64,000 nt of DNA. It comes from Usitatibacteraceae bacterium. GTDB lineage: Bacteria > Pseudomonadota > Gammaproteobacteria > Burkholderiales > Usitatibacteraceae. The stretch spans positions 1,105 through 65,104 of the forward strand of contig JBCKPN010000001.1 of NCBI GenBank assembly GCA_038901695.1. Direction: 5' to 3'. Positions 6,835 through 63,759 of the stretch are shown one piece after another; the first letter of the stretch is position 1; every line of letters starts with the position of its first letter. Below the pieces are notes generated by a model. The model did not search any database. It was not told where the DNA came from and was given only the letters and a program-made list of their open reading frames with translations. A program made the translations under genes and the position numbers.

Positions 6835-6951
6835 GGAAAAAACGCGGCAACAAAATGAGAAAGGCGCAATCGATTGACCGCGCCGTCACATTATCGCACT
6901 CACTCTGGCCACATCACGGCGGGGGAATGTCGCCGCGACGTGCATCGCCGC

Positions 6952-26865: not shown

Positions 26866-28083
26866 TCAGCGTGCGGAATGGCCGGAGAGCTTGACCTCGA
26901 CCTTGTCTTTGGCATCGATGCTGGCGTAGTACTCACGGAGAATTTCCAGTACCTCAGGCCGCGAGAATTCCGCGGGCACCGCATCGCCATCGGAGAGCCA
27001 TTTGCGCAGTTTGGTCCCTGACACCAGCAGGCGATCTTTTTCATCGTGCGGGCAGGTGCGCGCGGAGGCCATGCCGCCGCACTGGTAACACCAGAAGGTC
27101 CAGTCGATTTTCAGCGGTTTGGTTTCCAGGGCACCGGCTGGTATCTCATCAAAAATGTGATGCGCATCGAAGGGGCCGTAATAGCTGCCGACACCGGCAT
27201 GGTCGCGGCCAACGATCTGGTGCGAGCAGCCGTAATTCTGGCGGAACAGTGCATGCAGCAGTGCTTCGCGCGGCCCGGCATAACGCATGTCCAGCGGATA
27301 GCCGGATTGCACGACGGTGTTGGGTGCGAAATACTTGTCGATCAGCACTGCGATGGATTGGGTGCGTACGTCGGCAGGGATGTCGCCGGCCTTCAGGTTG
27401 CCGAGCAGGGAGTGCACCAGTACGCCGTCACAGACTTCGATGGCGACCTTGGCCAGATATTCGTGCGAGCGGTGCATCGGATTGCGCGTCTGGAAGGCGG
27501 CGACCGTGGTCCAGCCATTGGCTTCGAACGCCGCGCGAGTCTGCGCCGGGGTCATGTACATTGCGCCATATTTTTCCGGGAATCCGCCTTGTGACAGCAC
27601 TTTTACCGGACCGGCAAGGTTGATGTCGCTCTGTGACATCACCATTTGGACGCCAGGATGCTCAAGATCGGTAGTCTTGAACACCATCGCACATTCCTGC
27701 GTCTTGTCGATGGTGTATTTCTCCGTGACCTTCATGGTGGCGAGTATTTCGCCGGTGTCGGGATTGGTGAGCGCAATTTCAGCGTTGATTTTCAGCGCGT
27801 CAGCATGTGCCTTGGTTGCAGATAGTGTGATTGGTATTGGCCAGAATAAGTCATTGGCCAGCGTGCAGTGGTCACAGACACTGCGCCAGTCGGCCTCAGT
27901 CATAAAGCCGTCCAAAGGCGTGAATCCACCGATGCCCAACATCAGCAGATCACCTTTTTCTCGGGAAGTGACCGGAATCTTCGCGAATGATTGTGCTCGC
28001 TTTAGTTCTTCTCGCCGCGGTGCGTCATTCAATAACAGCGGCTTTAAAGAGCCACCCCCATGTGGTTTTACCAGTTTTGTCAT
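26866..28083 (-). CDS. sat: sulfate adenylyltransferase (ATP sulfurylase), homo-oligomeric type
   Basis: The signatures [12 protein letters not shown] and GRDHAGVG are present and the length is 405 aa. Confidence 0.93.
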
Positions 28084-28678: not shown

Positions 28679-29155
28679 ATGCACACCATCAAGCAGGCAC
28701 TCATCACCCTTGTCAGCTCCGGATTTCTGGTTGCCAGCGGCGGCGCATTCGCGCAGGCGCCGCCTGAAACCCCAGCCAAAGTGCCTGCCGGCATCAACGT
28801 CAAGCTGATAGGTGCAAAAGAAGTGCAGGATCTGCAGGCGAAAGGCGCCGTCCTCGTTGACACCCGCAGGGCTAACGAGTTTGCCGAAAAAAGCATCAAA
28901 GGCGCGATCTCCGTTCCCTATGATCCTGAGAAAAGCGCCAAGACACCGGATGGCATCTTCGATCCGTCGTTAGACCAGTTCGACTTGACTAAGTTTAAGG
29001 ATAAAAATGCCCATCTCGTGATGTTCTGCAATTCCGGTATCTGCTTCAAGTCATATAAAGCGGCGGTTGTGGCGGCTAAAGCCGGTTACAAGAACGTCTA
29101 TTGGTACCGTGATGGCTTGCCTGACTGGACAGCACGCAAGCTCCCGACGGAATAA
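28679..29155 (+). CDS. periplasmic rhodanese-domain sulfurtransferase
   Basis: It has a signal peptide (MHTIKQALITLVSSGFLVASGGAFA) and the PspE-like active-site loop FCNSGICFKS. A good SD is present. Confidence 0.75.
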   Translation: MHTIKQALITLVSSGFLVASGGAFAQAPPETPAKVPAGINVKLIGAKEVQDLQAKGAVLVDTRRANEFAEKSIKGAISVPYDPEKSAKTPDGIFDPSLDQFDLTKFKDKNAHLVMFCNSGICFKSYKAAVVAAKAGYKNVYWYRDGLPDWTARKLPTE

Positions 29156-31166: not shown

Positions 31167-31209
31167 GCGCGGGTGCCCTGCGAGAGCAGGGTTCCCGCGC
31201 TTTTTTTTT
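31167..31209 (+). terminator. rho-independent terminator
   Basis: gcgcgggtgccctgcgagagcagggttcccgcgc is followed by T9. Confidence 0.85.
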
Positions 31210-31240
31210 GGTATTTCACTATGTTTTTTGGTATTTCACT

Positions 31241-31711
31241 ATGCGGAATATAAAAACATTATTACTTGCCCATCACGGCACAACTGGGGCCGCGCTGGCG
31301 GAGACATTGGCGCTGGAGATTGCAACACCTGGCCAGACCAGAATCGTACACCTGCTGGTCGTGCCCGATTTATGGGCAGGCATGCAGGGGGACGACTGGC
31401 TGAACAACGCATCCACACGGGATGCATTCGGCGACTATGTGGAAGGCATTCTAGAGGCGGAAGCCAAGAAACAGCTACGCGCAGTGGAAGGGCGCTGCAG
31501 CGAACGCGGTATCGACTACAAGGCTGTGATGCGTCTGGGTGACCCGGCAGAATGTCTGCTGGAAATAGCGGCACAGGAAAGCGTGACTATGGTCGTGATC
31601 GGCCCGCCCCGCCCCAAGGGTGTAACAGGCCTGCGTTCGCGCATGGATATGGAGAAACTGGCGCGCGGTTTGTCGGTGCCGCTGCTGATGGCTGCACGAA
31701 CTGCTTCATGA
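31241..31711 (+). CDS. universal stress protein family (UspA-like)
   Basis: It starts MRNIKTLLLAHHGTTGA... and shows a typical USP fold pattern with LGDPAECLLEIAAQESVTMVVIG. The start lies in the second copy of a 20-bp tandem duplication. Confidence 0.7.
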   Translation: MRNIKTLLLAHHGTTGAALAETLALEIATPGQTRIVHLLVVPDLWAGMQGDDWLNNASTRDAFGDYVEGILEAEAKKQLRAVEGRCSERGIDYKAVMRLGDPAECLLEIAAQESVTMVVIGPPRPKGVTGLRSRMDMEKLARGLSVPLLMAARTAS

Positions 31712-33324: not shown

Positions 33325-33936
33325 TCACTTCTTCGCCGCAATCTCCTGCAACTTCGTCGGCTGAATGATGTGCCCGTCCAGCCCCGCCTCCTTGACTGTG
33401 CCGCCGTAGGCCACGGTCATGAGCTGCGAGTAGTAGAGCACCGGCATGTTGAGCTTGGTGCCCTGCTTGCGGTTGATCTCGGACTGGTAAATCTCGACAT
33501 TGGCTTGGCACAGTGGACAGGGTGTGACAATCATCTTGGCGCCGTGATCGTAGGCCGACTCCATGATGTCACGAATCTGCTTCTGGCTCTTTTCCGGTTC
33601 TGAAAAGGCCAGCGCCCCGCCACAGCAGGTCACCTTCTGGTCATAGGCTGCAATCACCTCGCCGCCCACGGTTTCAACCAGCTTGTCGAGATAGACCGGA
33701 TTCTCGAACGACTCGCCATCAATGCTAAATGGCCGGTTGGTCTGGCAGCCCACGTAGCCGGCAAACTTGATCCCTTCGAGCGATTTGACCACCGGCTTTT
33801 TCAGTTCGTCGTAACCAAAATCGGCGTGGTTCAAAATCGGGTAACACTTTTTCGGGTGGCCATCGGTTGAGTCATAGGCAAACCATCCAAAATTCACATT
33901 GTCCGTGTTACCCAAAAACGTTACTTTTTGAACCAC
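33325..33936 (-). CDS. HdrB-like CCG-domain protein, possibly 5'-truncated
   Basis: It has a single CCG-type cysteine motif set (GCQTNRP...TCCGG...TPCPLCQ). The start is GTG, 4 nt after a terminator. HdrB-type proteins normally carry two CCG domains. Confidence 0.55.
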   Translation of the reverse strand: MVQKVTFLGNTDNVNFGWFAYDSTDGHPKKCYPILNHADFGYDELKKPVVKSLEGIKFAGYVGCQTNRPFSIDGESFENPVYLDKLVETVGGEVIAAYDQKVTCCGGALAFSEPEKSQKQIRDIMESAYDHGAKMIVTPCPLCQANVEIYQSEINRKQGTKLNMPVLYYSQLMTVAYGGTVKEAGLDGHIIQPTKLQEIAAKK

Positions 33937-35352: not shown

Positions 35353-37221
35353 CTACTCGCCATCCGTAACCAAGTGATACAAAGGCGCCTTCTCCATGGT
35401 GTATTCGCCGGTTTCCGGATCGCGACGCGAAACTGTCAGCACGTGCCAACTTTCGTCGTCCAGCTTCATGAAGTCGCCTCGGTAGTAGTAACCCGGCCAA
35501 CGGGTCTCCTTGCGGAACAGCGTGTGCTGCGTAACGCACTCTGCAGCGCGATGACGGTGCATCAATTCCCACGCACGCAGCAACTCGTGGATATCCGCTG
35601 CGGCCAAGCTCTGAAGGTCTTCCTCCATGATCTCGAGCTTCTTGAGACCGATATTCAGGAGCTTCTCGTTGGTCATGTAGTTGACGGTCACTCCGCCGCA
35701 ATACTCGTCCATCAGTTTCTGTAGACGGTCTAGGCCCTGCTTGGGATTGATGTAGTGCGGGTTGACATCGCCCGCCACGATCGCATTGCGGTACATCTTG
35801 TAATGCTCCAGTGGCTTGTAGATCTCTTTCTTGCGACGGTTGATCTGCTCATCGGATACGACGATGCCTTCGGCCTTTCCGTCGTCGATGTATTTGCAGG
35901 CAGCCTTCGCGGCGAGACGACCTTCGGTGAACGAGCCGGCGGAGAATTTGTGCGGCGTGCCGCCGACTGCGTCACCGGCGCCGAACAGACCATCGATCGT
36001 CGTCATGCGGTTGTAACCCCAGAAATACTCGGGAGGGGAAAGGTCCTCGGGACCCGAGCACCAAGCACCAGAGCCAGTCGCGTGCGAGCCCATGACGTAG
36101 GGCTCGGATGTGGTCAGCTCGGGATTCTCGTGCTTGGGATCCACGTCGGTGGCGGCCCACAGAACCGCCTGGCCGACGGTCATGCCGAGGAAGTTTTCCC
36201 AACCGACCTCTTCCAAATGAGGATCCTGGAAGGCTTGCATGGTCACCATGTGAATGGGACCGCGGCCGGCGTTGACTTCGCTGATAATTGCATGGTTGCG
36301 CAAGCAGGTCGGGATTGGCCGATGGGTCAAGTGCGACGCTTCCGGATCGAGATATTCCTTGCCAACCATTTTCTGTAGTTCGGGGAACCATTTGGATTCG
36401 TACTCTTCGCCCAGGCAGTTCTGCGTATAGGTCTTCAGGTGCAGGAAGTAGGCGCCAACCGGGCCATAACCGTCCTTGAAACGTGCCAGCACGATGCGAT
36501 TTTCCATCTGCGTCATTTTGGCGCCAGCGTCGATCATGAGCCCATAGGCAGACGCGGACGACCAGGGCGCATACCAAGTGCGGCCGGCACCTTCGCCCAC
36601 TGAACGCGGTTTAAAGATGTTGGAGGCGCCGCCCGCAGCGCAGATCACGGTCTTGGATTTGAAGACGTGGTAGTTGCCTGTGCGGACGTTGAAGCCAACG
36701 GCACCGGCAATCCGGTTCTCCTTGCTGTCGTCCATCAGCAGGTGGGTGACGCAGATGCGGTTGAAGATCTTGTCCGCCGATTTTTTGGCGGCCTCGGCCA
36801 CGATGGGCTTGTAGGACTCGCCGTGAATCATGATCTGCCATCGCCCTTCACGCAGATAGCGCCCGGTTTTCGGGTCCTTCATGATGGGCAGGCCCCAATC
36901 TTCGAACTGATGCACCGTGGAGTCAACGTGACGGGCCATATCGAACAGCAGGTCTTCCCGCAGCATCCCCATCAGGTCGATGCGGGCGTAGCGGACATGA
37001 TCCTCCGGCTTATTTTCGCCCCAGCGGGTGCCCATATAGCAGTTGATAGCGTACAGCCCCTGGGCGACCGCACCGGAGCGATCAATATTGGCCTTCTCGG
37101 CAATGACAATATTCTTGTCTTGACCCCAGAATCGGGCCTCCCATGCGGCACCAGTGCCGCCAAGGCCTCCACCGACGACTAGAACATCAATGCCTTCTTC
37201 AACGATCGTTTCGTAAGCCAT
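35353..37221 (-). CDS. aprA: adenylylsulfate (APS) reductase alpha subunit
   Basis: The FAD fold VLVVGGGLGGTGAA is present. The length is 622 aa with AprA-typical sequence throughout, and it sits immediately after aprB. Confidence 0.93.
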   Translation of the reverse strand: MAYETIVEEGIDVLVVGGGLGGTGAAWEARFWGQDKNIVIAEKANIDRSGAVAQGLYAINCYMGTRWGENKPEDHVRYARIDLMGMLREDLLFDMARHVDSTVHQFEDWGLPIMKDPKTGRYLREGRWQIMIHGESYKPIVAEAAKKSADKIFNRICVTHLLMDDSKENRIAGAVGFNVRTGNYHVFKSKTVICAAGGASNIFKPRSVGEGAGRTWYAPWSSASAYGLMIDAGAKMTQMENRIVLARFKDGYGPVGAYFLHLKTYTQNCLGEEYESKWFPELQKMVGKEYLDPEASHLTHRPIPTCLRNHAIISEVNAGRGPIHMVTMQAFQDPHLEEVGWENFLGMTVGQAVLWAATDVDPKHENPELTTSEPYVMGSHATGSGAWCSGPEDLSPPEYFWGYNRMTTIDGLFGAGDAVGGTPHKFSAGSFTEGRLAAKAACKYIDDGKAEGIVVSDEQINRRKKEIYKPLEHYKMYRNAIVAGDVNPHYINPKQGLDRLQKLMDEYCGGVTVNYMTNEKLLNIGLKKLEIMEEDLQSLAAADIHELLRAWELMHRHRAAECVTQHTLFRKETRWPGYYYRGDFMKLDDESWHVLTVSRRDPETGEYTMEKAPLYHLVTDGE

Positions 37222-37700
37222 CAGTAGTACACCCCTGTCTTTAGCGTGAGACCGTTGGACTTAAGCGTATGTAAACCGCCATCATCCATGCGGATATATT
37301 TCGGCTCGCTGTACAACAACTCGCTGTCGCGCATTTCCTGGCTGGGCCCGGAAACATCCGCGAGCTTAGGGATCGCCGTCCCCCAGGGCTTGGTGGTAAT
37401 GGGCGACAGGAAGTTCTTTTCCGTACCATTCCGGAATTTGATCTTCCAGGCGATCGTGCCTTTCGCTTCGTCTCGGTCGACACGAACGCTGTGACCGAGC
37501 GGGGCAAAGTCGGCATATCCGCGCACATCGATCGCATTCTGCGGACAAGCCTTGACGCATGAGTAGCACTCCCAGCACATGCTAGGCTCGATGTTGTAGG
37601 CACGGCGATAGGTCTTATCGATGTGCATGATGTCCGAGGGGCAGATGTCGACGCAATGTCCGCATCCGTCGCACTTTGTCATATAAACAAAGGTAGGCAT
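37221..37700 (-). CDS. aprB: adenylylsulfate reductase beta subunit
   Basis: It has two [4Fe-4S] motifs, CDGCGHCVDICP and CWECYSCVKACP. Its stop overlaps the aprA start by 1 nt. Confidence 0.93.
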   Translation of the reverse strand: MPTFVYMTKCDGCGHCVDICPSDIMHIDKTYRRAYNIEPSMCWECYSCVKACPQNAIDVRGYADFAPLGHSVRVDRDEAKGTIAWKIKFRNGTEKNFLSPITTKPWGTAIPKLADVSGPSQEMRDSELLYSEPKYIRMDDGGLHTLKSNGLTLKTGVYY

Positions 37701-41031: not shown

Positions 41032-42246
41032 GTGAAAATTCTGGAGCGTGGCGTGACTGACTGCGCTGACATTAAACATCGTGCGGGGGGGGAAGACGTC
41101 GGGGAAGCGCTGGCCGAGATTACCGCGAGCCTCTCGGCAGAGGCTGATGTCGACACCGTGCTGGCGCGATTTCTTGGCGCAATCGTCAAGCTCACTGGTG
41201 CGGATGCTGCTGCTGTTCAGATGCTAACCGAAGATGGACTGCGGCTGCGTGTGACCGCTTCAATCGGTCTGCCGGCGGAAGTATTGAAACGAGAACAATC
41301 CGTCAGCGCGACTTGCGGCGTCTGCGGCGAAGCGGTTCAGAAAATCTTCGCGCATGACAGCAAGGAGTTGTTGGCCGACTGCAATGGCTGCTGTCGCTTT
41401 TTCGGGCTCGGCTTTCACAATGCGGTTGCGATTCCAATCCCGTTTCAGGGCAAAGTGCTCGGAATATACAGCCTGTTTTTGGCAGAAGGCCAGACGATCC
41501 CGGACACCGTGTGGAATCTTCTGCGCTCGATCGGTGAACTGCTCGGCATGGCGTTTCAAAACGCGAGACTGATGGCTGAGAACCTGCGGGTGGGTTTGCT
41601 TCGGGAGCGCCAATCGATCGCAAGTGATGTTCACGATTCACTGGCGCAGACACTTTCGTACATGAAAATGCGCATGAGCTTGTTGCAGGACGCATTGCGG
41701 CAAAATGATTCTGCGCAATCGCAGCAATACGCACTAGAAATCAACGAGACCCTCGGCAGCGCCTACTCGAGTCTCAGGCAGTTGCTCACAAATTTTCGCA
41801 ATCCGGTCGATCCCGAAGGTTTGTTGTTTGCGCTGCAACAAGTGAAAGTGAAGTTTTGTCGAACGACCGGAATACGCGTAGATCTCACGAATAATGCGTC
41901 AGACTTGAATCTCTGTGCGGATCAGGCGTCCCAAGTGTTTTATATCGTGCAGGAGGCGCTGAATAACATCGCCAAACACGCCAATGCAACCTGCGTCAAG
42001 CTGACGCTGGACAGGAAAGATGGATGGGTCGAAATCTGCGTCGAGGACAATGGCGCAGGGATGTCGGCAAACGGCACTCCGGCGAATGCGGGCGATGCGG
42101 AGACCGCACACCTTGGACTCGATATCATGAGGGAACGGGCTCGCCATCTGCGAGGGCAACTTAAAATCGAAAGTGCCAGCGGGCGCGGTACCCGCGTACA
42201 CTTAAGGTTTCGCGGTACCTTTGCGACGGACAAGGATTTGGCATGA
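41032..42246 (+). CDS. GAF-domain sensor histidine kinase (HisKA_3/NarX-type), cytoplasmic
   Basis: It has a GAF-like N-terminus with five cysteines (CGVCGE ... CNGCC). The H-box is SDVHDSLAQTLSYMKM and the ATPase N-box is QEALNNIAKHANA. No TM helix is present. The start is GTG. Confidence 0.8.
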   Translation: MKILERGVTDCADIKHRAGGEDVGEALAEITASLSAEADVDTVLARFLGAIVKLTGADAAAVQMLTEDGLRLRVTASIGLPAEVLKREQSVSATCGVCGEAVQKIFAHDSKELLADCNGCCRFFGLGFHNAVAIPIPFQGKVLGIYSLFLAEGQTIPDTVWNLLRSIGELLGMAFQNARLMAENLRVGLLRERQSIASDVHDSLAQTLSYMKMRMSLLQDALRQNDSAQSQQYALEINETLGSAYSSLRQLLTNFRNPVDPEGLLFALQQVKVKFCRTTGIRVDLTNNASDLNLCADQASQVFYIVQEALNNIAKHANATCVKLTLDRKDGWVEICVEDNGAGMSANGTPANAGDAETAHLGLDIMRERARHLRGQLKIESASGRGTRVHLRFRGTFATDKDLA

Positions 42247-42908
42247 ATGCCCCCATACGAGTCGTACTAATCGACGACCATGCGTTATGCCGTAAGGGCT
42301 TATCGGAGATGTTGGAGAAGCGCGCGGGAATGCAAGTGGTCGGGCTGACGGCCAGTCCGGATGAAGCGCTCAGCATGCTAATGGAGCTTAAGCCCGATCT
42401 GGCGGTCATGGATTTGCGCATGCCCCAGATGGATGGACTCAGCCTGCTCCGCCGTTTTAGAACGGAGGGCTGCAATACACCGGTGCTGATTCTGACTGTG
42501 AGTGATGCGCAGGAAGATCTGGCCAATGCATTGGCTGCTGGCGCAAGGGGGTATCTGCTGAAGGACATGGAGCCGGACGATGTGGTTGAGGCGATCCAGC
42601 GGGCAGCGAAGGGCGAGTTGGTGCTGGCACCTGCCATGACGGTGAAGCTGGCACGCATGTTGCAAGTTGCGCAAAAAGGTTGCGGTACCGACGACTTGTT
42701 TAATCTGTTAACTGAACGCGAGCGGGAAATTCTTGAACATCTTGCGCACGGAAAAACAAACAAGGCGATTGCGAAGGAACTCGGCATTAGCAACGATACC
42801 GTCAAGCTGCATGTGAGCCGCATTCTCGCGAAGCTGCATTTGACATCAAGAGTGGAAGCCGCTGTATTTGCGGTTGAACATCGAGCCAATCCCACGCGTT
42901 CGATGTAA
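42243..42908 (+). CDS. NarL/LuxR-family response regulator
   Basis: The receiver domain shows VVLIDDH and DLRMPQMDG. The LuxR HTH reads LTEREREILEHLAHGKTNKAIAKELGISNDTVKLHVSRIL. Its ATG overlaps the kinase stop. Confidence 0.88.
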   Translation: MNAPIRVVLIDDHALCRKGLSEMLEKRAGMQVVGLTASPDEALSMLMELKPDLAVMDLRMPQMDGLSLLRRFRTEGCNTPVLILTVSDAQEDLANALAAGARGYLLKDMEPDDVVEAIQRAAKGELVLAPAMTVKLARMLQVAQKGCGTDDLFNLLTEREREILEHLAHGKTNKAIAKELGISNDTVKLHVSRILAKLHLTSRVEAAVFAVEHRANPTRSM

Positions 42909-42922
42909 CTTGGCGAGTCTTT

Positions 42923-44356
42923 TCAATTAGAGGCAAACGCGCCGGCTGGCTCATCTGCCGCATGTGAACCGCCGCCCGGCTCGTACCATGCAAGCTTCTC
43001 GTGCAGTTTGACCACTTCGCCCACAATAATGAGTGTCGGCGGCTTAAGTTTTGCGGCGGCAGCGAGCGCGGGCAGGGTCTGCAACGTTCCGGTTATCACC
43101 CGTTGGTGTTCGGTGGTGCCTTGTTGAACGATGGCGATCGGTGTCGACGCGGGTAGGCCGTGTGCGACCAGTTCGCGACATACTACCGGCAGACCCATCA
43201 AGCCCATGTAAACCACCACGGTTTGCCGTGGTTGTGCGAGAGCTTTCCAGTTCAGATCCATGCTGCCATCTTTGAGATGGCCGGCCACAAACACGCACGA
43301 TTGCGAGTAATCCCGATGAGTCAAGGGGATACCTGCGTAGGCCGCAACGCCACTCGCCGCCGTGATTCCCGGAACGACTTGGAAGGGGATTCCGAAGCTG
43401 GATAAGGCTTCGATTTCTTCTCCGCCCCGTCCAAAAATGAACGGATCTCCACCCTTGAGTCTTAGAACGCGTTTTCCTTCCTGCGCCAGTCGCACCAGCA
43501 AGTCATTGATTTCCTCTTGTGCGAGCGCATGATTTTCCCGTTGCTTGCCAACATAGATAAGCTCTGCGTCGCGTCGGACCAAATCGAGAATGGCTGGCGT
43601 GACTAGGTTATCGTGCAGTACGACGTCGGCCTGTTGCATTAGCCGGAGTGCGCGCAATGTGAGCAGATCAGGGTTGCCGGGGCCAGCACCGACCAAATAC
43701 ACCTCGCCCTGCGGCGCACTATTGGGCTCTGCCCGAAGCGCCTCGTTGAGATACTTTCTAGCGGCGCCGTCTTGACCGGCGAAAACCATCTCGGCAAATG
43801 GTCCGCGCAAGGTGGTTTCCCAAAAGATACGACGCTTTTCCGTGTGCGTAAAATGCGCCTTCACTCGACTGCGGAATTCCTCGGCCAGCGCCGCAAGGCG
43901 GCCATAGGCGGCAGGAATCATGGTTTCCAGCCGTTCACGTAGCTGACGCGCCAGCACCGGCGAAGCGCCCCCCGTGGAAACGGCGACCACCACCGGCGAG
44001 CGGTCAACGATTGACGGAAGGATGAACGAGCATAACGCCGGGGTATCCACCACATTGACCGGCAGCCGCGCCTGTCTTGCCGCCGTAGCCACCTCGCGGT
44101 TCACCTGATTGTCATCAGTCGCGGCGATGACCAATTCCATATCTTGCAAGTGTTGCGGCGCAAAACGTTCGGCCAGGTGGGTGATGCCGCCAAGCCGCAT
44201 GCTTAAGCGCAACTTATCATCAATCTCCGGCGATACCACCGTGACAAGCGCACCACATTTACGCAGTAAATCAATCTTGCGCGCCGCCACCTCACCACCG
44301 CCAACGACTAAACAGTGTCGGTCCTTAATCTTCACAAATATCGGTAAGAAATCCAC
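42923..44356 (-). CDS. cysG: siroheme synthase (multifunctional CysG)
   Basis: The N-terminal dehydrogenase/chelatase fold is LVVGGGEVAARK. The SUMT domain shows VYLVGAGPGNPDLLTLRA and LKGGDPFIFGRGGEE. Confidence 0.92.
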   Translation of the reverse strand: MDFLPIFVKIKDRHCLVVGGGEVAARKIDLLRKCGALVTVVSPEIDDKLRLSMRLGGITHLAERFAPQHLQDMELVIAATDDNQVNREVATAARQARLPVNVVDTPALCSFILPSIVDRSPVVVAVSTGGASPVLARQLRERLETMIPAAYGRLAALAEEFRSRVKAHFTHTEKRRIFWETTLRGPFAEMVFAGQDGAARKYLNEALRAEPNSAPQGEVYLVGAGPGNPDLLTLRALRLMQQADVVLHDNLVTPAILDLVRRDAELIYVGKQRENHALAQEEINDLLVRLAQEGKRVLRLKGGDPFIFGRGGEEIEALSSFGIPFQVVPGITAASGVAAYAGIPLTHRDYSQSCVFVAGHLKDGSMDLNWKALAQPRQTVVVYMGLMGLPVVCRELVAHGLPASTPIAIVQQGTTEHQRVITGTLQTLPALAAAAKLKPPTLIIVGEVVKLHEKLAWYEPGGGSHAADEPAGAFASN

Positions 44357-55678: not shown

Positions 55679-56959
55679 CTATGCCGCCACTTTTTTGGCG
55701 TTGATCTTGGCGACTTCGTCGTCCCAGCCGTCCATCCGGACATACGGATTCGTACGCGGTGCTGTCACCATGTTTACATCAATTTCGACGCCGATGCCTT
55801 CTAGGAAATTTACCAGCCCAATGCGTTCGATCATCTCGCCGGTGCGCTCGTGCTCGAGCGCATTTTCAGCAAAGAAATCAATGACCTTTTGGCCGAGCTC
55901 AACCAACTTTTCGTAGTCTTCCTCGGTGTCGAGCTTCAGGAACGGAACGATCACCGTCCCCATCAAGTCGCCGATTTTTAGGGTCCGCTTGCCGCCAATC
56001 AGAATTGTTGCACCTTTATCAGTGCCGGTGGCCAACGCACCGGTCATCACGTTGATGCAATGCATACAACGCACACAGTTGCTGTTGTCAATCTCAAGAG
56101 ACTGGGTGTCGTTGATCGCGACACTGGATATCTTTTCACCCTTGGCGACATTCTTGGTTTCCTTGAGCATGATGGTTTTCGTCGGACAGCGACTGATCAC
56201 GTCATTGACCAATTCGTCCATGCCATGCTTTGCAAACCACTTTTTTGCCAGCACTTCGTCGGTCCGCATATTGTCGCGCCACGTGCCGATGACCGCCATA
56301 TCCGAGCGCTGAATGGAATTCATGCAGTCGTTGGGGCAACCTGAAAATTTGAATTTGAATTTGTAAGGCAGTGCCGGGCGATGAATGTCGTCAATAAACG
56401 TGTTCAGCACCTTGCGATGGGCTTTGGCTTCGTCGTAACAGGATTGCTCGCAGCGTGCGGCGCCAACGCAGGACATCGACGTACGTACCGCCGGGCCTGC
56501 TCCACCCAGATCGAATCCCAGTTCGTTGATCGCATTGAATGCGTCCTGTACTTTTGCAGAGGAAGCGCCCTGAAACATGATGTCACCGCTCTGGCCGTGG
56601 AACGCGATCAGGCCGGAGCCGTGTTCTCCCCAAGCGTCGCAAAGTTTGCGCAGAATGTCAGTGCTGTAGTGCATACCCGGCGGCGGTTGCACGCGCAAGG
56701 TGTGAAACTCTGCCGATTCGGGAAACATGCTGGCGACTTCAGAAAACCGCGGAATAATCCCGCCGCCATAACCAAACACGCCGACCGTGCCGCCCTTCCA
56801 GTAGCCTTTTCTGGTTTTGTACGAATGCTCCAGTTGACCCAGCAGGTCAACCATGTAGTCCTTTTCCTTGGCAAGACGCTTCAAGCCGGTGACGAAACTG
56901 GGCCACGGGCCGCTCTCGAGTTGGTCGAGCATTGGGGTGTCATATATTTTCTTTGCCAT
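55679..56959 (-). CDS. dsrA: dissimilatory sulfite reductase alpha subunit (reverse/oxidative type by context)
   Basis: The motifs MSCVGAARCEQSC and FSGCPNDC are present. The ferredoxin insert reads CPTKTI...CVRCMHCINVM. The length is 426 aa. Confidence 0.93.
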   Translation of the reverse strand: MAKKIYDTPMLDQLESGPWPSFVTGLKRLAKEKDYMVDLLGQLEHSYKTRKGYWKGGTVGVFGYGGGIIPRFSEVASMFPESAEFHTLRVQPPPGMHYSTDILRKLCDAWGEHGSGLIAFHGQSGDIMFQGASSAKVQDAFNAINELGFDLGGAGPAVRTSMSCVGAARCEQSCYDEAKAHRKVLNTFIDDIHRPALPYKFKFKFSGCPNDCMNSIQRSDMAVIGTWRDNMRTDEVLAKKWFAKHGMDELVNDVISRCPTKTIMLKETKNVAKGEKISSVAINDTQSLEIDNSNCVRCMHCINVMTGALATGTDKGATILIGGKRTLKIGDLMGTVIVPFLKLDTEEDYEKLVELGQKVIDFFAENALEHERTGEMIERIGLVNFLEGIGVEIDVNMVTAPRTNPYVRMDGWDDEVAKINAKKVAA

Positions 56960-57317
56960 GGCGCCTTCTCCTGTGAGAACTATTTACCTTGCGACAATCA
57001 TATTCCGGTCGCTATGACGACTCGTTGTTTTGTGCTGCATGCCGAAACGGTGCGGAATGCTGGTGTCCATATCCACCCGCGTAACAAGTGTAAACCAGTA
57101 CACTCTTTGCATGGTGGAACAGTACCATTGTGTTCGCGGCGTAACGATAGACCTGTTAGGGGGGGGGTGGCCATTACCCATATGGGGTATGCGCAATCCC
57201 CCGTCGTGGCTATAGACTGGGGTAGGGGCAATTCTGCCCAATGCTAGCCTGTGCGCAGTCGTCGCCCGCGCACGTTATAGGGCTACAAGGTGTCGGTATT
57301 TCGCGCGCAATCTTAGG
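56960..57317. promoter_or_regulatory. divergent promoter/regulatory region between dsrA and the Cas6-like operon
   Basis: The spacer is about 358 bp, non-coding, and lies between divergently oriented first genes. It contains a G9 tract (57159-57167) and the near-palindrome tacccatatggggta. No promoter boxes were assigned with confidence. Confidence 0.5.
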
Positions 57318-57602
57318 GTGAGATTCGCATTAACGTTGGGGCGACGCGGATTTGGCGCTCGCATGGTGCTGGAGCATGGCATGACCACAATTGTCCCGCT
57401 AGAAAAATTTCACGTGCCGTTGGGTGGGCAGGATATTGAACTGCAGCAAATTGATTACGCGGGCGGCGGAATGAGTCTGTTGCGTATCCGAATACGCGAG
57501 GGCAGCCGGTTTACAATTTTCGACATCGACCCCGTTACGGCTGCGCAAATTGCTGGTGCCATTCAAACTTGGGCGGACGCGCAATTACGGGACGTCGTAT
57601 GA
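57318..57602 (+). CDS. small hypothetical protein, first gene of the divergent operon
   Basis: The ORF is translationally coupled to the next gene (ATGA at 57599-57602). The start is uncertain: GTG 57318, ATG 57363 or ATG 57381. I recognise no family. Confidence 0.45.
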   Translation: MRFALTLGRRGFGARMVLEHGMTTIVPLEKFHVPLGGQDIELQQIDYAGGGMSLLRIRIREGSRFTIFDIDPVTAAQIAGAIQTWADAQLRDVV

Positions 57603-58216
57603 CAGAGCCAGATCGACAATCGACGTTCGTGGACGTTTTGTTTGCGTTGGAGGGCAGCGCATTGCCGAAAGACTACCGATTTCTGCTCATGCGAGAGATT
57701 GGCCGCCACCTGCCTTGGTTCGAGTCGGATGACTCGGTCGGCATGCACCCGATTAAGGCGTCCAAAACAGATTATGGAATGGTGCTGTTGCCGCGACGCG
57801 CCAAACTGATTCTGCGTATGCCGCAGACGCGCGTCGCAGAAGTTCGCGTGTTGATTGGGGCGGTACTCGATATTGCGGGTCATACGCTGCGTGTTGGCGA
57901 GTTCACCGTGCGCCCAATTCAACCATATGGCACTCTTTATGCGTACTTTGTCGTTGACGACACCGGAGACGAGTTGGCCTTTATACGGCGCATCGAAGCG
58001 CAGCTTGATGCACTTTCGGTTCCATGCAGCGTCGTCTGCGGGCAGCACGGCGCGCTACAGGGGGACGGGCGCGAGTTGGAGGGCTACAGCCTGATGTTGC
58101 ACGGTCTTGCAGCACCACACTCGGTCAGGTTGCAGGAAACAGGTTTGGGGAGCGATCGCAATCTCGGTTGTGGCATGCTCGTACCGCATAAATCAGTGGT
58201 GGCGGTAGGGTTTTAG
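57599..58216 (+). CDS. orphan Cas6/Cmx6-like RAMP-family protein
   Basis: The C-terminal glycine-rich loop LQETGLGSDRNLGCGMLVPHKS is typical of Cas6/RAMP proteins. The N-terminus FVDVLFALEGSALPKDYRFLLMREIGRHLPWF...GMHPIK resembles the Cas6/Cmx6 (type I-MYXAN) family as I remember it. The length of 205 aa fits. Confidence 0.55.
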   Translation: MTEPDRQSTFVDVLFALEGSALPKDYRFLLMREIGRHLPWFESDDSVGMHPIKASKTDYGMVLLPRRAKLILRMPQTRVAEVRVLIGAVLDIAGHTLRVGEFTVRPIQPYGTLYAYFVVDDTGDELAFIRRIEAQLDALSVPCSVVCGQHGALQGDGRELEGYSLMLHGLAAPHSVRLQETGLGSDRNLGCGMLVPHKSVVAVGF

Positions 58217-58265
58217 CTGCTTGAGATGGGTTGGCGGCAATTTTGATCTGGAAAGGATGGGCGAA

Positions 58266-58595
58266 ATGGCTTACTTGATCGACGGCGTTGAACGTGAAAC
58301 TGATGACTTGGGATACTTGCTGGAACCAGACTACGGCGCGGATGTACCGCCGGTGATTGCCGCCGCCGAGGGCATCACCCTGACCGATGCGCACTGGGAG
58401 GTCATCAACTACTTGCGGGAGGAATTCAAAGAACATGGACACACACCCAACTTTCGTAATTTGATGAAAGGGATGGAAACAATTCGCGATGGCGTGGACA
58501 GTAAATATCTGTACAACTTGTTTCCAATGGGGCCGGCCAAACAGGCCGCCAAGGTTGCCGGACTGCCCCAGCCGCTGGGTAAGGGTGGGTACTAG
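58266..58595 (+). CDS. DsrC/TusE-family protein lacking both conserved cysteines
   Basis: MAYLIDGVERETDDLGYLLEP...HWEVINYLREEF... parallels DsrC residue by residue. The C-terminal arm is PAKQAAKVAGLPQPLGKGGY, whereas DsrC has PAKQACKIAGLPKPTGCI. Confidence 0.75.
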   Translation: MAYLIDGVERETDDLGYLLEPDYGADVPPVIAAAEGITLTDAHWEVINYLREEFKEHGHTPNFRNLMKGMETIRDGVDSKYLYNLFPMGPAKQAAKVAGLPQPLGKGGY

Positions 58596-58642
58596 CAATC
58601 ATGCGTGCGGTTTCTTGCAGGTTTAGAAGGCGGGATTGAGCA

Positions 58643-59254
58643 ATGTGTGCAATGCGATTAAAGAGTCACTGGTTCAAGGCAGACAAACCCAAGACCATGA
58701 AACAAATGGCGGGCGCGATGGCGTTTATCACCTGGAGGGTCACCGACAATGCTCTCAAGCAACTGCGGACGGCCAAGTTCGACATCGACGCTGGCCCGCA
58801 GTATTTCGCTTTCACCAGAGAATTTCTGGTGTTTCTGATCCAGATCGCGGACCGCATCGCCTATGAACGCTTGCAACCACAAGAGCGCGTCGAATTTACA
58901 ACCGAGCTGGTGATCCGGCTGTCGGAAATTTTGGAAGAAAACGAAGATCGATTGCTTGAGCCGCCGCTGAACCAAAGTTACAGAAGCCGATTCATTGACT
59001 TATTCAACGAGCTTTCGGATCATTACGCGGAATTCAAATATGTGGACAACAATCCGGACTTCGCGTTCGTGCGCTATTTGGGTAGTCGAGTCACCGAACT
59101 CATGGTGGCGAAGGATCGCACTTGGGTGATGGATCAGATCATGGCCATTGAGGCACCCGACGCGATCAAATTTCTGCAGCAGAGTATGACGGACCTGTTC
59201 CATACGGGACCGCGCGAACGCTCGAAGCGGCCGGCGCGTGCTAGCGGCGATTGA
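58643..59254 (+). CDS. hypothetical protein, 203 aa
   Basis: The ORF has ordinary, non-repetitive amino-acid composition, unlike the shadow ORFs nearby. Its stop abuts the next ATG. I recognise no family. Confidence 0.5.
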   Translation: MCAMRLKSHWFKADKPKTMKQMAGAMAFITWRVTDNALKQLRTAKFDIDAGPQYFAFTREFLVFLIQIADRIAYERLQPQERVEFTTELVIRLSEILEENEDRLLEPPLNQSYRSRFIDLFNELSDHYAEFKYVDNNPDFAFVRYLGSRVTELMVAKDRTWVMDQIMAIEAPDAIKFLQQSMTDLFHTGPRERSKRPARASGD

Positions 59255-60172
59255 ATGGCAACCGTAATGGCCACGGCGTGCACGGCAACACGACGCGATA
59301 GTCCGTTCGAGCTCGGCAATGACGATGCTTATCGACGCTGGCGTGATGAAAAGCTGCTTGACTATCCAGCGCGAGTCGACGAACTCGTGGTCGACGTTGT
59401 CGATCCGCGCGCGCTCACGTCGGCTGAAAAGGCGGCGATACTGGCGCGTGTCCGCAAGACCAATATGGCGCTATACGCAAGCAAGGTGCGTGACGCTGAC
59501 AAGAACATTTTGCGCCTGCTCGGCGGGCAATTTGGCCTTCTGCGCCTCGATCAAAACATGCTTGCCGACGACGATGGCATTACGCAAGTTAGGGTCGCCG
59601 ACGCCAATGCGGGCGCAGCGCAGCGCTATATCCCCTATACCAACCGCCCGCTCAATTGGCACACCGACGGCTACTACAATTCTCCTGCGCGACGAATCCA
59701 GGCGATGCTGTTGCACTGTGTTTGCGACAGCGTTTCCGGAGGTGAAAATGCGTTCATGGACCACGAAATTGCTTATCTATTTCTACGCGATGAAAACCCT
59801 GATTACGTGCGTGCGCTCATGCATCCGGATGCCATGACGATTCCTGCGCGCGAAGACGACGATGGCGTTGCACGTGGCGCGCAGTCTGGCCCGGTGTTTG
59901 CGATCGATCCGCATAGTGGCGCGCTGCACATGCGCTACACGGCGCGAACGCGTAGTATCGAATGGCGACAAGATGCGAGCACTCAGGCAGCAGTAGCAAC
60001 GCTCGCCCAGCTACTCAACGCCGGCTCGCCCTATATTTTCCGCATGGCATTCAAGCCGGGAATGGGTATCATAAGCAACAACGTACTGCACGATCGCACC
60101 GGTTTTTCTGATGACGTTACCCATCGTCGATTGCTCTACCGTGCCCGTTACCTTGATCGGGTGGAACCATAG
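59255..60172 (+). CDS. TauD/TfdA-family Fe(II)/2-oxoglutarate-dependent dioxygenase-like protein
   Basis: The HxD motif is present in PLNWHTDGYY and the distal His in NNVLHDRTGF. The length is 305 aa. Confidence 0.6.
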   Translation: MATVMATACTATRRDSPFELGNDDAYRRWRDEKLLDYPARVDELVVDVVDPRALTSAEKAAILARVRKTNMALYASKVRDADKNILRLLGGQFGLLRLDQNMLADDDGITQVRVADANAGAAQRYIPYTNRPLNWHTDGYYNSPARRIQAMLLHCVCDSVSGGENAFMDHEIAYLFLRDENPDYVRALMHPDAMTIPAREDDDGVARGAQSGPVFAIDPHSGALHMRYTARTRSIEWRQDASTQAAVATLAQLLNAGSPYIFRMAFKPGMGIISNNVLHDRTGFSDDVTHRRLLYRARYLDRVEP

Positions 60173-60260
60173 TGACGTCGATGGCGACGCACTTAGAGAT
60201 GAGCGATTTTCCGGTGAGCCGCAGCAGTCGCCGCGCTTGGTGCGCTATTGAAGGGTATTC

Positions 60261-61745
60261 ATGACGCAATGGCTAACATTATGGCGAGCCGCGCACTTGA
60301 TCGGGGTGTCGCGAAGTGTGCTGCAACAAAAAATCCGGGTCGGGGAGTTGCAAACGACCGAGGGGACTATTTCGACCGAGGAATTGTTAAGGGTGTACCC
60401 GCAGGTTCAGTTGGAAGAGTCGGGAGCCTTTGAGCGCGTCTCGAAAATCAAGGAACAGGCGTTCGGGCGTCGCGTGCGTGAACATGTGCTCCCCAGCCAG
60501 GAGGTATTGGCACAACGCCTGTTCGCGCAGAGCGAGGAACTGACCGACTTGCGTCGTCACTTGCAGCGTTATCACAATCTGGTGGTCGCCCTGCAATCGG
60601 GGATTCACGATGTCGCGACGGCATCGAACATAGATGCACTAAACAGTCTTGAATTATTTGCCGAGAAGGGACTTGCGGATGTACTCGCCACTGAAGCCGC
60701 CGATGTGTTGGATATCATGAACGACGCGTTAAAGGTCATGTTCGCCCAAGTGACCATCCGACCAAGCGGACGCGAGTTTACGGTCGAAGGTCACGATACA
60801 TTGCTGCAGGCGGGGTTGCGTGCAGGGCTTCGGCTCAACTACGGCTGCGGCAATGGCACGTGCGGCCTCTGCAAAGCTAGGGTGATTTCCGGTGCTGTGA
60901 CGCGGACGCAGCCGAGCGACTATCCGCTTTCAGAAGCCGAAAAATTGCAGGGCTACACGCTGTTGTGTTCGCATACGGCGGCGTCTAGCGAAGTCGTCAT
61001 CGAAACTTTGGAGGCGCGCGGCTCGCAGGACATTCCACCGCAGCAAATCGTCGCCCGCGTACGCGCTGTCACGCCGTTGGCGAAGGACACGCTATTGCTC
61101 CACTTGCAGACGCCACGGACTAATCGCCTGCGTTTTCTTGCCGGGCAAAGCGTCACACTCGGCACCGCCACCAACGGCGACGATGAGCACGCCGATTATT
61201 CAATTGCGAGTTGCCCATGCGATGACCGCAACGTGCAGTTCTACATTCCGCGAAATGCGAAAGACCTATTTGCCCAACGGCTGTTTGAAGGCGCGGTGAA
61301 AGTTGGCGATAGCGTGAGTATCTGGGGGCCGCAAGGAAACTTTATTCTTGCGGAGACTCAGCGCCCGTTGGTTTTTATCGCGTGCGACACGGGATTTGCC
61401 CCGGTAAAAAGTTTGATCGAGCATGCCATGGCGGTGGACGCGGCGGAATCGTTGTCGCTCTATTGGCTGGCTACGCGTGCTGACGGACATTTTTTGGCAA
61501 ACCAATGCCGCGCATGGGGGGAAGCGCTGGACAATTTCGACTATTCGCTGCATACCGACAGCGATGTTGCCGCCGGCGCGCGACATTTTCTGCCCGCGAT
61601 TCGGGCGGATCTTTTTGTTACCCAATGCGAATACTATCTTGCAGGCTCCGCCGAGTTTACCCAGACTATGTCTGACGAGTTGCGCATGGCAGGCGTGCCG
61701 CAGCGACAGATATTTGCGTTGGAAATGCGGGAATCACATTCATGA
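60261..61745 (+). CDS. fusion protein: N-terminal HTH + coiled region + plant-type [2Fe-2S] ferredoxin + FNR-like FAD/NAD(P) reductase
   Basis: The HTH-like start is MTQWLTLWRAAHLIGVSRSVLQQKIRVGEL. The ferredoxin motif is CGNGTCGLCKARV...LLCSH. The reductase part shows RFLAGQSV, YSIAS and LVFIACDTGFAPVKSL. Confidence 0.7.
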   Translation: MTQWLTLWRAAHLIGVSRSVLQQKIRVGELQTTEGTISTEELLRVYPQVQLEESGAFERVSKIKEQAFGRRVREHVLPSQEVLAQRLFAQSEELTDLRRHLQRYHNLVVALQSGIHDVATASNIDALNSLELFAEKGLADVLATEAADVLDIMNDALKVMFAQVTIRPSGREFTVEGHDTLLQAGLRAGLRLNYGCGNGTCGLCKARVISGAVTRTQPSDYPLSEAEKLQGYTLLCSHTAASSEVVIETLEARGSQDIPPQQIVARVRAVTPLAKDTLLLHLQTPRTNRLRFLAGQSVTLGTATNGDDEHADYSIASCPCDDRNVQFYIPRNAKDLFAQRLFEGAVKVGDSVSIWGPQGNFILAETQRPLVFIACDTGFAPVKSLIEHAMAVDAAESLSLYWLATRADGHFLANQCRAWGEALDNFDYSLHTDSDVAAGARHFLPAIRADLFVTQCEYYLAGSAEFTQTMSDELRMAGVPQRQIFALEMRESHS

Positions 61746-62104
61746 TTGCAAATCAGGAGGCGCCACAACCACCAGCATCACTGATGGCTGTAGACAGTAA
61801 TTGTGCGGGCGGTGAATCGTTTGCGCTGATGGTGTTGGGCACGAGCATGGAGCCTGAATTCGTTGAGGGTGAAGTCATCGTCATTGAGCCGGATGGCCTC
61901 GCGACGGATGGTGCCTACGTATTGGCGTTTCTCGCCGAAGAGTGGACCATGCGGCAGCTGGTGCGGCGTGGCGACTTGTGGGTATTGCATGCCTTGAACG
62001 CAGCGTTTCCGGATGTGTCGATCCCCGACCTCGCGCCCGTCAAAGGCGTCATTATTCAAAAGTCCAAACCCGGGCGACGGCGGGCTTCCAAGCGATATGT
62101 TTAG
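61742..62104 (+). CDS. stand-alone S24 (LexA/UmuD-like) peptidase domain protein
   Basis: The Ser motif is LMVLGTSMEPEF with a beta-rich S24-like fold pattern, and no DNA-binding domain. Its ATG overlaps the upstream stop (ATGA). Confidence 0.6.
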   Translation: MIANQEAPQPPASLMAVDSNCAGGESFALMVLGTSMEPEFVEGEVIVIEPDGLATDGAYVLAFLAEEWTMRQLVRRGDLWVLHALNAAFPDVSIPDLAPVKGVIIQKSKPGRRRASKRYV

Positions 62105-62245: not shown

Positions 62246-62330
62246 TTAGTTGGTGGGCGCGTGCGGCAAACGTCGATCGTCGGCGCGTTCATATGCAATA
62301 TCAGATCAACTTGAGATGAAAGGTTTCACC

Positions 62331-62723
62331 ATGGAAAACCGCTACGGCTTCGGCAAACGGGTGGCAATGACATTTGACGCTGCAATTGACAAGGTGACGA
62401 AGGAGCTACAAGTAGAAGGATTCGGCATCCTCACCGAAATTGATGTGGCAGCCACACTGAAAAAGAAGTTGGACCACGACATTCCCCCGTATCGAATACT
62501 GGGTGCCTGCAACCCGCCGCTCGCCAAGCGCGCGTTGACCGCTGAACCGACTGTCGGTCTGCTGTTGCCGTGCAACGTGGTTGTGAGGCAGGACGCAGCG
62601 GGAGACGTACACGTTGAATGCATGGATCCAGCCATCATGAGCGAACTATCCGCCAACGCAGATGTGGGCCAAGTGGCGGCCGAGGTGCGCGAAAAATTGG
62701 TGCGTGTAATGAACGCACTGTAG
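62331..62723 (+). CDS. DUF302 domain protein
   Basis: MENRYGFGKRV...GFGILTEIDVAATLKKKL...YRILGACNPPLA is the typical DUF302 pattern. An alternative ATG lies at 62316. Confidence 0.75.
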   Translation: MENRYGFGKRVAMTFDAAIDKVTKELQVEGFGILTEIDVAATLKKKLDHDIPPYRILGACNPPLAKRALTAEPTVGLLLPCNVVVRQDAAGDVHVECMDPAIMSELSANADVGQVAAEVREKLVRVMNAL

Positions 62724-63568: not shown

Positions 63569-63759
63569 AGGGCACCTCTAAAAATTCAATCAAGTCGATG
63601 ATGGCAAGGCGCAAAGTCGTGAAGGCGTGAAGGCGTGAAGGCGTGAAGGCGCGAAGGCGCGAAGGCGCGAAAAAGCGCCGTGTACACGTAGTACATGAGC
63701 ATTTTGAGCGGCTTTGCAACGCCGCCAGCGCGGCTTCAGTGAATTTTTAGAGGTGCCCT
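63569..63759. repeat. MITE-like element, copy B (with internal microsatellite expansion)
   Basis: The termini and interior match copy A, plus 48 extra bp. Confidence 0.8.
63619..63666. repeat. 8-bp tandem repeat, six units (gtgaaggc x3, gcgaaggc x3)
   Basis: Copy A has only gtcgcgaaaaagc at the corresponding place. Confidence 0.85.

Follow-up and report, generated by a model that had tools for sequence, protein, structure and literature searches.

In many environmental bacteria, cytoplasmic sulfur oxidation proceeds mainly by the reverse-Dsr pathway, and we know of essentially nothing on the regulation of this pathway outside Allochromatium. RAMP proteins, to which Cas6 belongs, are usually seen as confined to CRISPR-Cas systems. 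Two other described systems serve here for comparison, the Tus relay (TusA-TusBCD-TusE-MnmA) of tRNA 2-thiouridine and DsrD, a small protein with a DNA-binding-like fold that is encoded with dsrAB and has a role concerning DsrAB (PMC8794893). We analysed a stretch of 64,000 nucleotides (nt) from a Usitatibacteraceae bacterium (assembly GCA_038901695.1, contig JBCKPN010000001.1, positions 1,105 to 65,104 of the forward strand), hereafter the window. Divergent from dsrA, it carries a string of genes for a DUF6967 protein (gene 1), a Cas6-like protein (gene 2), a DsrC-like protein without redox cysteines (gene 3, the Cys-less DsrC), an orphan helical protein (gene 4), a TauD-type dioxygenase (gene 5) and several further products. 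This string is a conserved accessory operon of reverse-Dsr sulfur oxidation, which shares a control region with dsrA.

The operon differs from DsrD in its fold families and in its layout, which is a divergent set of several genes and not one gene inside dsrAB(D). Oxidative-type organisms are without dsrD (PMC8794893), a lack that possibly leaves a vacant niche. The likeness to the Tus relay lies in the company of TusA-like and TusE-like proteins with RNA-binding ones and in DsrEFH, the TusBCD homologue, being encoded in the facing operon; the differences are that the TusE-like protein has no cysteine, that no MnmA-type enzyme is present and that the operon of the window is without TusA. The component families are already known, and so is the kind as such, namely genes with an accessory or regulatory role linked to dsr operons. 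What appears to be new is the fixed partnership of a CRISPR-free Cas6 homologue with a Cys-less DsrC and with orphan helical and PUR-like proteins, together with the operator-bearing divergent layout and the breadth of its conservation. No description of this cluster was found in the full-text literature, the subscription literature being outside the scope of the search; an earlier mention of a DsrC-like gene near dsr may exist in the latter.

The conservation of the arrangement was followed in a genome scan with one genome per species and the Cas6-like alignment as query, which gave 248 genomes with a relative. The loci inspected are the best 80 of these 248, most of them metagenome-assembled and nearly all from Betaproteobacteria (Burkholderiales/Rubrivivax-type, Gallionellaceae, Rhodocyclaceae, Sulfuricella, Thiobacillus, Sulfuritalea and Hydrogenophilales). 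A divergent dsrA was found within 3 kb in 60 out of 60 loci having at least 1.9 kb of upstream DNA. The first-pass annotation of this DNA had made its proposal depend on such recurrence beside dsrA, which is thus observed in every inspectable locus and also in a distant lineage; another of its reservations, that the genes might be unrelated housekeeping orthologs, found no support, as no operon gene was given a housekeeping ortholog assignment. The gene order is identical throughout, with genes 1 to 5 nearly universal (Table 1). Genes 6 and 7, the 75-aa (amino acid) gene and the Cys-rich 148-aa gene are an optional extension. The seven genes first taken as one set are therefore not the evolutionary unit, its near-universal core being genes 1 to 5, with genes 6 and 7 present in about half of the loci. 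Median identities across loci range from 41 to 65%, which shows that all members are under selection.

The distant lineage, of 46% GC, has a DsrA of 65% identity and a Cas6-like protein of 34% identity. Its order is an unrelated 236-aa gene, the Cas6-like gene, the Cys-less DsrC gene and the gene 4 homologue, again divergent from dsrA. Since these three genes are what this lineage keeps, the invariant unit is Cas6-like, Cys-less DsrC and gene 4 facing dsrA. The linkage of this trio to dsrA is strict and ancient, and the PUR-repeat-like protein of gene 1 and the TauD-type dioxygenase are betaproteobacterial additions. In locus L088, which carries a copy of the trio, the first 180 nt encode the N-terminus of DsrA. 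Independent metagenome contigs show the same layout. Among cultured carriers, Ferriphaselus amnicola OYT1 has the cluster in its complete genome, where four inserted genes separate dsrA from gene 1, and the dsrA of Sideroxydans ES-1 is Slit_1686 (PMC8788666). Sterolibacterium-type loci have DUF6967, Cas6-like, TusA and DsrC-like genes only. In some lineages an inserted gene for a tandem TusA, with CPxP at both active sites, lies between genes 2 and 4; it is absent from the window. This double protein measures about 160 aa and has two SCPxP and two (D/N)CPG motifs; it is encoded at 11027-11515 in L004, 10709-11188 in L006 and 11213-11686 in L090.

By its sequence, gene 2 is an unambiguous Cas6/Cmx6 homologue, as had been proposed: besides the Pfam match (Table 1), it scores 144.5 bits with TIGR02807 cas6_cmx6, above the cut-off of 98.85, and its family profile finds the solved type I-B Cas6 8fcj_B with an expectation value (E) of 2.4e-27. 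In the NCBI equivalog naming it is a 'type I-MYXAN CRISPR-associated Cas6/Cmx6' protein. Across 84 sequences, R67, R73, E125, H197 and the glycines G182, G184, G190 and G192 of the G-rich loop are invariant. His50 of the GIHP motif, which aligns with a His of 8fcj_B and which, by analogy with other Cas6 proteins, is the putative catalytic His, is kept in 66 of the 84 and replaced by Leu, Ile, Gln or Ala in the remaining 18. The family thus shares with type I-B/I-MYXAN Cas6 its homology, the glycine-rich loop and mostly the GIHP His. It differs from them by the loss of this putative catalytic residue in 18/84 members, by its array-free context, by its adjacency to dsrA, by its sulfur-relay look-alike partners and in that no cognate repeat hairpin was found in the neighbourhoods examined.

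Gene 3 belongs to the DsrC/TusE fold family (PF04358, TIGR03342) and retains the flexible C-terminal arm; a true DsrC is encoded 5 kb away in the same window, and the two proteins are 47% identical. The arm of gene 3 reads AAKVAGLPQPLGKGGY, that of the true DsrC ACKIAGLPKPTGCV, both Cys positions being replaced. The description of a paralog without redox cysteines was therefore correct. As both are absent, gene 3 is neither a DsrC nor a TusE by their defining chemistry; with the TusE model NF008562 it scores 81.5 against a cut-off of 191 and has no arm Cys. Its own Cys-free tail, AGLPQPxGKGGY, is conserved across 73 homologues. A DsrC fold without arm Cys corresponds to the RspA-type, i.e. Cys-less, DsrC paralogues. 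These are said to have been named RspA for 'regulatory sulfur-related proteins', DsrC of A. vinosum reportedly binds dsr promoter DNA, and Cys-less DsrC paralogues are already suspected to be regulators. RspA is used as a family name in PMC8477390. The GKGGY tail and the fixed partnership with a Cas6 were not found described in the literature searched. A profile search also returned a weak LexA_DNA_bind-like stretch in gene 3.

Gene 4, which had been left as an unknown protein of 203 aa, indeed has no family in Pfam, NCBIfam or PADLOC, and a Foldseek search of its AlphaFold2 (AF2) model, a confident six-helix bundle, against the PDB gave no structural homologue better than E 0.3. In an exhaustive profile search among 1.84 billion representatives, its family made up 438 clusters (50% identity), and the relatives are almost all stand-alone proteins of 180-205 aa. 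In one metagenome protein of 270 aa, P0323, part of a DsrC domain (residues 3-67) is followed by the N-terminal half of a gene 4 homologue (119-227); this may reflect either a genuine fusion or an artefact of a frameshift, and P0323 is too fragmentary to count as a DsrC-gene 4 gene fusion.

The small product of gene 1, for which no family had been proposed, was assigned to DUF6967, with 1312 homologues at 64-96% identity. Its AF2 model, obtained from a 35-sequence alignment, is a beta-beta-beta-beta-alpha fold with a mean predicted local distance difference test score (pLDDT) of 91.6. The top Foldseek matches of this confident model are PUR repeats of Pur-alpha, with probabilities of 0.95-0.99, TM-scores of 0.61-0.71 and E values of 0.5-1. 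PUR repeats bind single-stranded nucleic acids, and they pair into a PUR domain. The resemblance of the model is a lead, not proof, that gene 1 may bind single-stranded nucleic acid.

The spacer between dsrA and gene 1 holds a block of conserved elements. Individual k-mers of the block recur in 20-35 of the 79 intergenic regions, compared with a maximum of 3-11 in shuffles; the spacer alignment, A4, comprises 69 loci. The inverted repeat YACCC-N4/5-GGGTA, of which the window has a near-perfect copy, was counted at 94 sites in the 79 spacers versus 0.4 in shuffles (more than 200-fold), with up to three per spacer and a density of 4.4 per kb in spacers, whereas the loci as a whole have 0.06 per kb; as these patterns were derived from the same sequences on which they were tested, the statistics describe conservation and not function. 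A promoter-like pair on the gene 1 side, T[AG]GAC-N17-20-YCAAT/CATAKT, was found in 44 of the 79 spacers versus 0.28 in shuffles. The pair keeps a fixed 39-41 nt to the palindrome, and its distance to the start of gene 1 has a median of 37.5 nt. On the dsrA side, our reading of the alignment suggests a conserved minus-strand TAnnAT-type hexamer at the left edge of the block. The arms of the palindrome pair in 91.6% of cells with one compensatory change, and 169 of 500 shuffles were as good; RNAalifold predicted no pairs in a consensus structure of the whole intergenic block. Considering that the arms are conserved in sequence without covariation and that no RNA structure is predicted, the palindromes are read as DNA, and they look like operators lying between two divergent promoters. 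An RNA hairpin as target of the Cas6-like protein was considered for the same palindrome and found no support, as there is no covariation and the element lies upstream of the promoter-like hexamers. The half-sites (TACCC...GGGTA) presumably resemble operators of the CsoR/CstR type; no gene for such a regulator was found among ten selected small open reading frames (ORFs) at 13-34 kb.

Further boxes in the spacer of the window are GATAGACC (57146-57153), GGCTATAGAC (57208-57217) and GCCCAATG (57236-57243). Most other loci have the box GCTATCACYCTCGTTGGGTA, itself a YACCC-N5-GGGTA repeat, and the related CTATCACTAAAGGGATA occurs in the distant 46% GC lineage (L091, about 6862-6878). Outside the dsrA spacer, the loose palindrome pattern occurs at 24299, 28861 and 63264 of the window, one of these matches being in the 5' part of the rhodanese ORF (28679-29155) and one inside gene X; these are probably chance matches.

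The early statement that the set is no canonical CRISPR-Cas module, sulfur pathway or defence system is supported. No CRISPR-like array was found in the window or in 90 related loci (91 sequences, 1.39 Mb), and no other cas gene was called in the four annotated neighbourhoods, by which a CRISPR module is ruled out. The sole repeat matches are perfect tandem repeats of 81-82 nt, free of spacers and hence not CRISPR arrays; they are located at 4222-4711 in L037 (6.0 copies) and 10971-11157 in L079 (2.3 copies), with 99% identity, inside otherwise conserved dsr or operon spacers. With PADLOC, gene 2 matched Cas6 models and the eight other proteins matched nothing, which rules out a known defence system. 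As to a conserved RNA that the Cas6-like protein might recognize, the operon spacers showed ribosome-binding (Shine-Dalgarno) sequences only, with folding z-scores near 0, and no conserved hairpin was found downstream of dsrA or dsrB. Downstream of dsrC there is a weak general folding tendency (mean z of -1.05) and no shared motif. An Rfam search of the window returned a tRNA only. The target of the protein, if an RNA, may lie elsewhere in the genome.

Re-checking of the ORF list gave the same seven plus-strand ORFs and the same coordinates as the first-pass annotation, including the ATGA overlaps at 57599-57602 and 61742-61745, the stop at 59252-59254 abutting the ATG at 59255, and the gaps of 49 nt (58217-58265), 47 nt (58596-58642) and 88 nt (60173-60260). 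Six of its seven domain calls agree with the profile searches, the exception being the helix-turn-helix (HTH) of gene 6, which stayed sub-threshold. Its distance of 358 nt to dsrA is right for a GTG start at 57318; the most likely start of gene 1 is the ATG at 57381, since GGAG lies 6 nt upstream and the homologues measure 70-79 aa, which makes the distance 421 nt. The string had also been closed too early at 62104, as it continues with the 75-aa gene and the Cys-rich 148-aa gene. On the evidence of the sequence, the operon genes are likely co-transcribed. Terminator-like matches numbered 8 against 8.8 expected by chance, promoter-like matches from a general scan were at chance level, and neither kind falls inside the inter-gene gaps. 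The GC content of the operon, 0.54-0.57, is the same as in the rest of the window. The facing dsrA opens a full dsrABEFHCMKLJOPN(R) operon, which extends to the left as far as about 44409, and NIR_SIR domains were called on the dsrA homologues of annotated related loci.

Table 1. Features of the window and occurrence of the operon genes in related loci. Occurrence counts include only loci with enough flank for the gene concerned.
Feature	Position	Strand	Observation	Loci with gene
SulP permeases (two)	21309-25363			
sat	26866-28083			
Rhodanese	28679-29155			
CCG-domain protein	33325-33936			
aprBA	35353-37700			
cysG, end of dsr operon	42923-44356			
dsrA	55679-56959	-	ORF of 426 aa; median identity of 82% with the DsrA of 73 related loci	
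Shared control region	56960-57380	.	Block of elements conserved across about 79 loci	
Operator-like palindrome TACCCATATGGGGTA	57175-57189	.	Near-perfect copy of the YACCC-N4/5-GGGTA inverted repeat	
Promoter-like pair TAGACT, 18 nt, CCCAAT	57213-57242	+	Gene 1 side; consensus reading only	
Gene 1, DUF6967, 73 aa	57381-57602	+	PF22295, 97 bits; alternative starts at 57363 and 57318	76/77
Gene 2, Cas6/Cmx6-family RAMP, 205 aa	57599-58216	+	PF09559, 177 bits	
Gene 3, DsrC/TusE family, 109 aa	58266-58595	+	PF04358, 108 bits	66/76
Gene 4, orphan all-alpha protein, 203 aa	58643-59254	+	AF2 model with six helices, pLDDT 80.7	67/67
Gene 5, TauD/BBOX-like Fe(II)/2-oxoglutarate dioxygenase, 305 aa	59255-60172	+	PF02668, 73 bits	60/64
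Gene 6, 494 aa	60261-61745	+	HTH-like N-terminus, helical linker, plant-type [2Fe-2S], divergent FNR-like module	31/57
Gene 7, S24-fold domain, 120 aa	61742-62104	+	PF00717 Peptidase_S24, 52 bits	28/55
DUF302 gene	62250-62723	+	PF03625, 94 bits; outside the conserved string	
Gene 9, 75 aa	62769-62996	+	Conserved residues; no family match in profile searches	24/54
Gene X, Cys-rich, 148 aa	63033-63479	+	Five conserved cysteines; no family match in profile searches	14/52

The TauD-type assignment of gene 5 was borne out by its Pfam match, and its best solved relative is TmpA (6npb, E 5e-6). The HxD...H iron triad and the 2-oxoglutarate Arg are present, in the segments WHTDGYYN, NNVLHDR and RLLYRARY conserved in 71 homologues; the scores with the TmpA, BBOX and TMLH models are far under the cut-offs. 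Gene 6 had been called a fusion of HTH, ferredoxin and ferredoxin-NADP reductase (FNR). The redox part of this call stands, with Fer2 and FAD_binding_6 above their cut-offs and NAD_binding_1 weak and below its own, while the HTH-like head shows a conserved pattern with sub-threshold profile matches only (HTH_8, E 0.05; NF038291, E 0.011). The best solved relatives are 5ogx and 1krh. Gene 6 has the same order as BenC/MmoC-type reductases, namely plant-type [2Fe-2S], FAD-binding and NAD-binding-like; it differs from them by an extra N-terminus of 160 residues, with the HTH-like motif and a helical linker, and by having no nearby partner oxygenase in need of a reductase. Against BenC-type models it reaches about 25% of the cut-offs (BenC, 121 vs 430). 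The cluster Cys are conserved, and the RxYS and GGTGxAP motifs are swapped for conserved ASCPCDDRN and ACDTGFAP.

Gene 7 had been viewed as a bare S24 domain of a self-cleaving protease. The domain is there, its best solved relative being the C-terminal domain of lambda cI (E 4.6e-5), and the fold and a GxSM motif like GDSM are shared with LexA, UmuD and lambda cI. The Ser-Lys catalytic dyad is not intact: all 33 homologues have Arg instead of the catalytic Lys, while 25 of them keep the Ser and 8 have lost it. Only 34 residues precede the Ser, with the canonical cleavage-site segment absent. A conserved C(S/A)GG lies 12-14 residues before the Ser, compared with about 35 for the canonical Ala-Gly or Cys-Gly cleavage site. 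In addition, gene 7 differs from these proteins by lacking the cleavage-site strand and a DNA-binding domain and by a conserved basic tail, PGRRRASK. Owing to the Arg in place of Lys, the variable Ser and the lack of room for a cleavage site, gene 7 is unlikely to be a LexA-type self-cleaving protease. The 75-aa gene always comes after gene 7, and gene X always after the 75-aa gene. The DUF302 gene inserted between gene 7 and the 75-aa gene is found there in this genome only; the sole other DUF302 among the related loci, in L015, is on the other strand and further downstream.

The window is a complete oxidative sulfur island (Table 1). Between cysG and aprBA, at 41032-42908, it encodes a GAF-HisKA_3 histidine kinase and a LuxR/NarL-type response regulator, a candidate pair for a conventional regulator of the same island. 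In three related loci, a cluster on the opposite strand downstream of the operon encodes TusA, a DsrE2-like protein and a FadL/Toluene_X outer-membrane channel (L001, 15761-18821; L004, 16704-19692; L090, 17484-19599), with an SCP2 protein in L001 and L004 only. This cluster could serve the uptake and carriage of hydrophobic sulfur; the corresponding position lies beyond the end of the window. Just past the last conserved gene, the octamer AAGGCGCG is tandemly repeated at 63606-63671 (8.2 copies, 91% matches), and an exact 20-nt tandem duplication, TTTTTTGGTATTTCACTATG twice, is located at 31204-31243.

As to function, the operon is tentatively read, with a probability of about 0.35, as a sulfur-status-responsive module that controls dsr through a nucleic-acid-binding output. 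The Cys-less DsrC would dock on the partners of true DsrC, i.e. DsrEFH, TusA, DsrAB or DsrK, and we propose that, because it is unable to carry sulfur, it would report the loading of the sulfur relay. It would pass the state of the relay to the Cas6-like and PUR-like proteins and to its own HTH-like motif, and these nucleic-acid binders would act on the TACCC-N4/5-GGGTA operators and/or on dsr transcripts, by which dsr expression would be set. The dioxygenase and the Fe-S/flavin-type protein would add an oxygen or redox input. In a bolder version, which we consider speculative, the Cas6 RAMP nuclease would have been domesticated without an array and would form, with the Cys-less DsrC as a decoy and with gene 4, a ribonucleoprotein-type sensor of relay loading that sets dsr expression at the transcript and/or promoter; if true, the operon would define a new class of regulators and give Cas6 its first housekeeping function. 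Several points weigh against control of dsr by the operon. Five to nine genes are a lot for a regulator, and the intact triad of gene 5 suggests real chemistry. The PUR-like assignment of gene 1 concerns a small fold, matched at Foldseek E values of 0.5-1, the palindrome-binding protein may be encoded elsewhere, and the search of the intergenic block, the operon spacers and the dsr spacers yielded no RNA target of the Cas6-like protein. The transcriptome paper on Sideroxydans ES-1 reports the dsr genes Slit_1673-1686 and not the neighbouring genes. Lastly, DsrD, the winged-helix protein of dsr operons, does not regulate by binding DNA but activates reductive DsrAB allosterically (PMC8794893).

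The example of DsrD, a DNA-binding-like fold acting as an enzyme activator (PMC8794893), also speaks for a direct protein partner, in which the Cys-less DsrC would bind rDsrAB, DsrEFH or DsrMK as a DsrD-like allosteric effector or gatekeeper; the tandem TusA, TauD and Fe-S/flavin proteins would take care of delivering sulfur or of modifying a cofactor or carrier molecule, and the Cas6 and PUR folds would be re-used for binding proteins or small molecules. Such a role is possible, if rather doubtful. It is consistent with the strict synteny with structural dsr genes, the presence, within the operon of several lineages, of a tandem TusA that retains its active-site cysteines, the intact TauD triad, the retained DsrC-like arm with its own conserved tail and the TusA-DsrE2-FadL cluster near the operon in L001, L004 and L090 (with SCP2 in the first two). 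It fits less well with the invariant RNA-binding hallmarks of Cas6 (G-rich loop, conserved Arg/His), with a second nucleic-acid-binding-type fold, gene 1, translationally coupled to gene 2, and with a divergent operator-bearing layout typical of regulator-target pairs. By analogy with the Tus relay, the operon might instead serve an RNA modification or processing co-regulated with sulfur oxidation, the Cas6-like and PUR-like proteins holding the RNA, TusA and DsrEFH delivering sulfur, the TusE-like protein acting as an adaptor and the dioxygenase hydroxylating the RNA. Two RNA-binding-type folds beside TusA-like and TusE-like proteins, and a putative catalytic Cas6 His kept in most sequences (66/84), would agree with this. 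We nevertheless hold it to be unlikely: a TusE-like protein free of Cys cannot itself relay sulfur, the annotated loci hold no PP-loop thiouridylase or other RNA-modifying enzyme, the tandem TusA is missing from the window, the strict adjacency to dsrA is left unexplained, and we know of no TauD-family enzyme that modifies RNA. The NCBI equivalog name of gene 2 would suggest a decaying CRISPR-Cas or mobile-element remnant that neighbours dsrA by chance. This is highly improbable and is excluded by the conservation data, order and position being kept in 60/60 inspectable genomes and in the distant lineage, with all genes intact at 41-65% median identity; besides, there are no arrays or repeats, no other cas genes in the four annotated neighbourhoods, and a GC content (0.54-0.57) that matches the window.

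For CRISPR biology, the operon is a clean and widespread example of a Cas6 homologue living free of CRISPR, and the label 'type I-MYXAN CRISPR-associated Cas6/Cmx6' is misleading in the dsrA context. In metagenomics, the trio of DUF6967, Cas6-like protein and Cys-less DsrC could mark oxidative-type dsr loci. The stretch downstream of Slit_1686 in Sideroxydans ES-1 and that around OYT1_ch1921 in Ferriphaselus OYT1 offer targets for knockouts in cultured carriers, as does Thiobacillus. A gene set fixed in this way beside dsrA is an obvious place to seek the regulation of reverse-Dsr sulfur oxidation.

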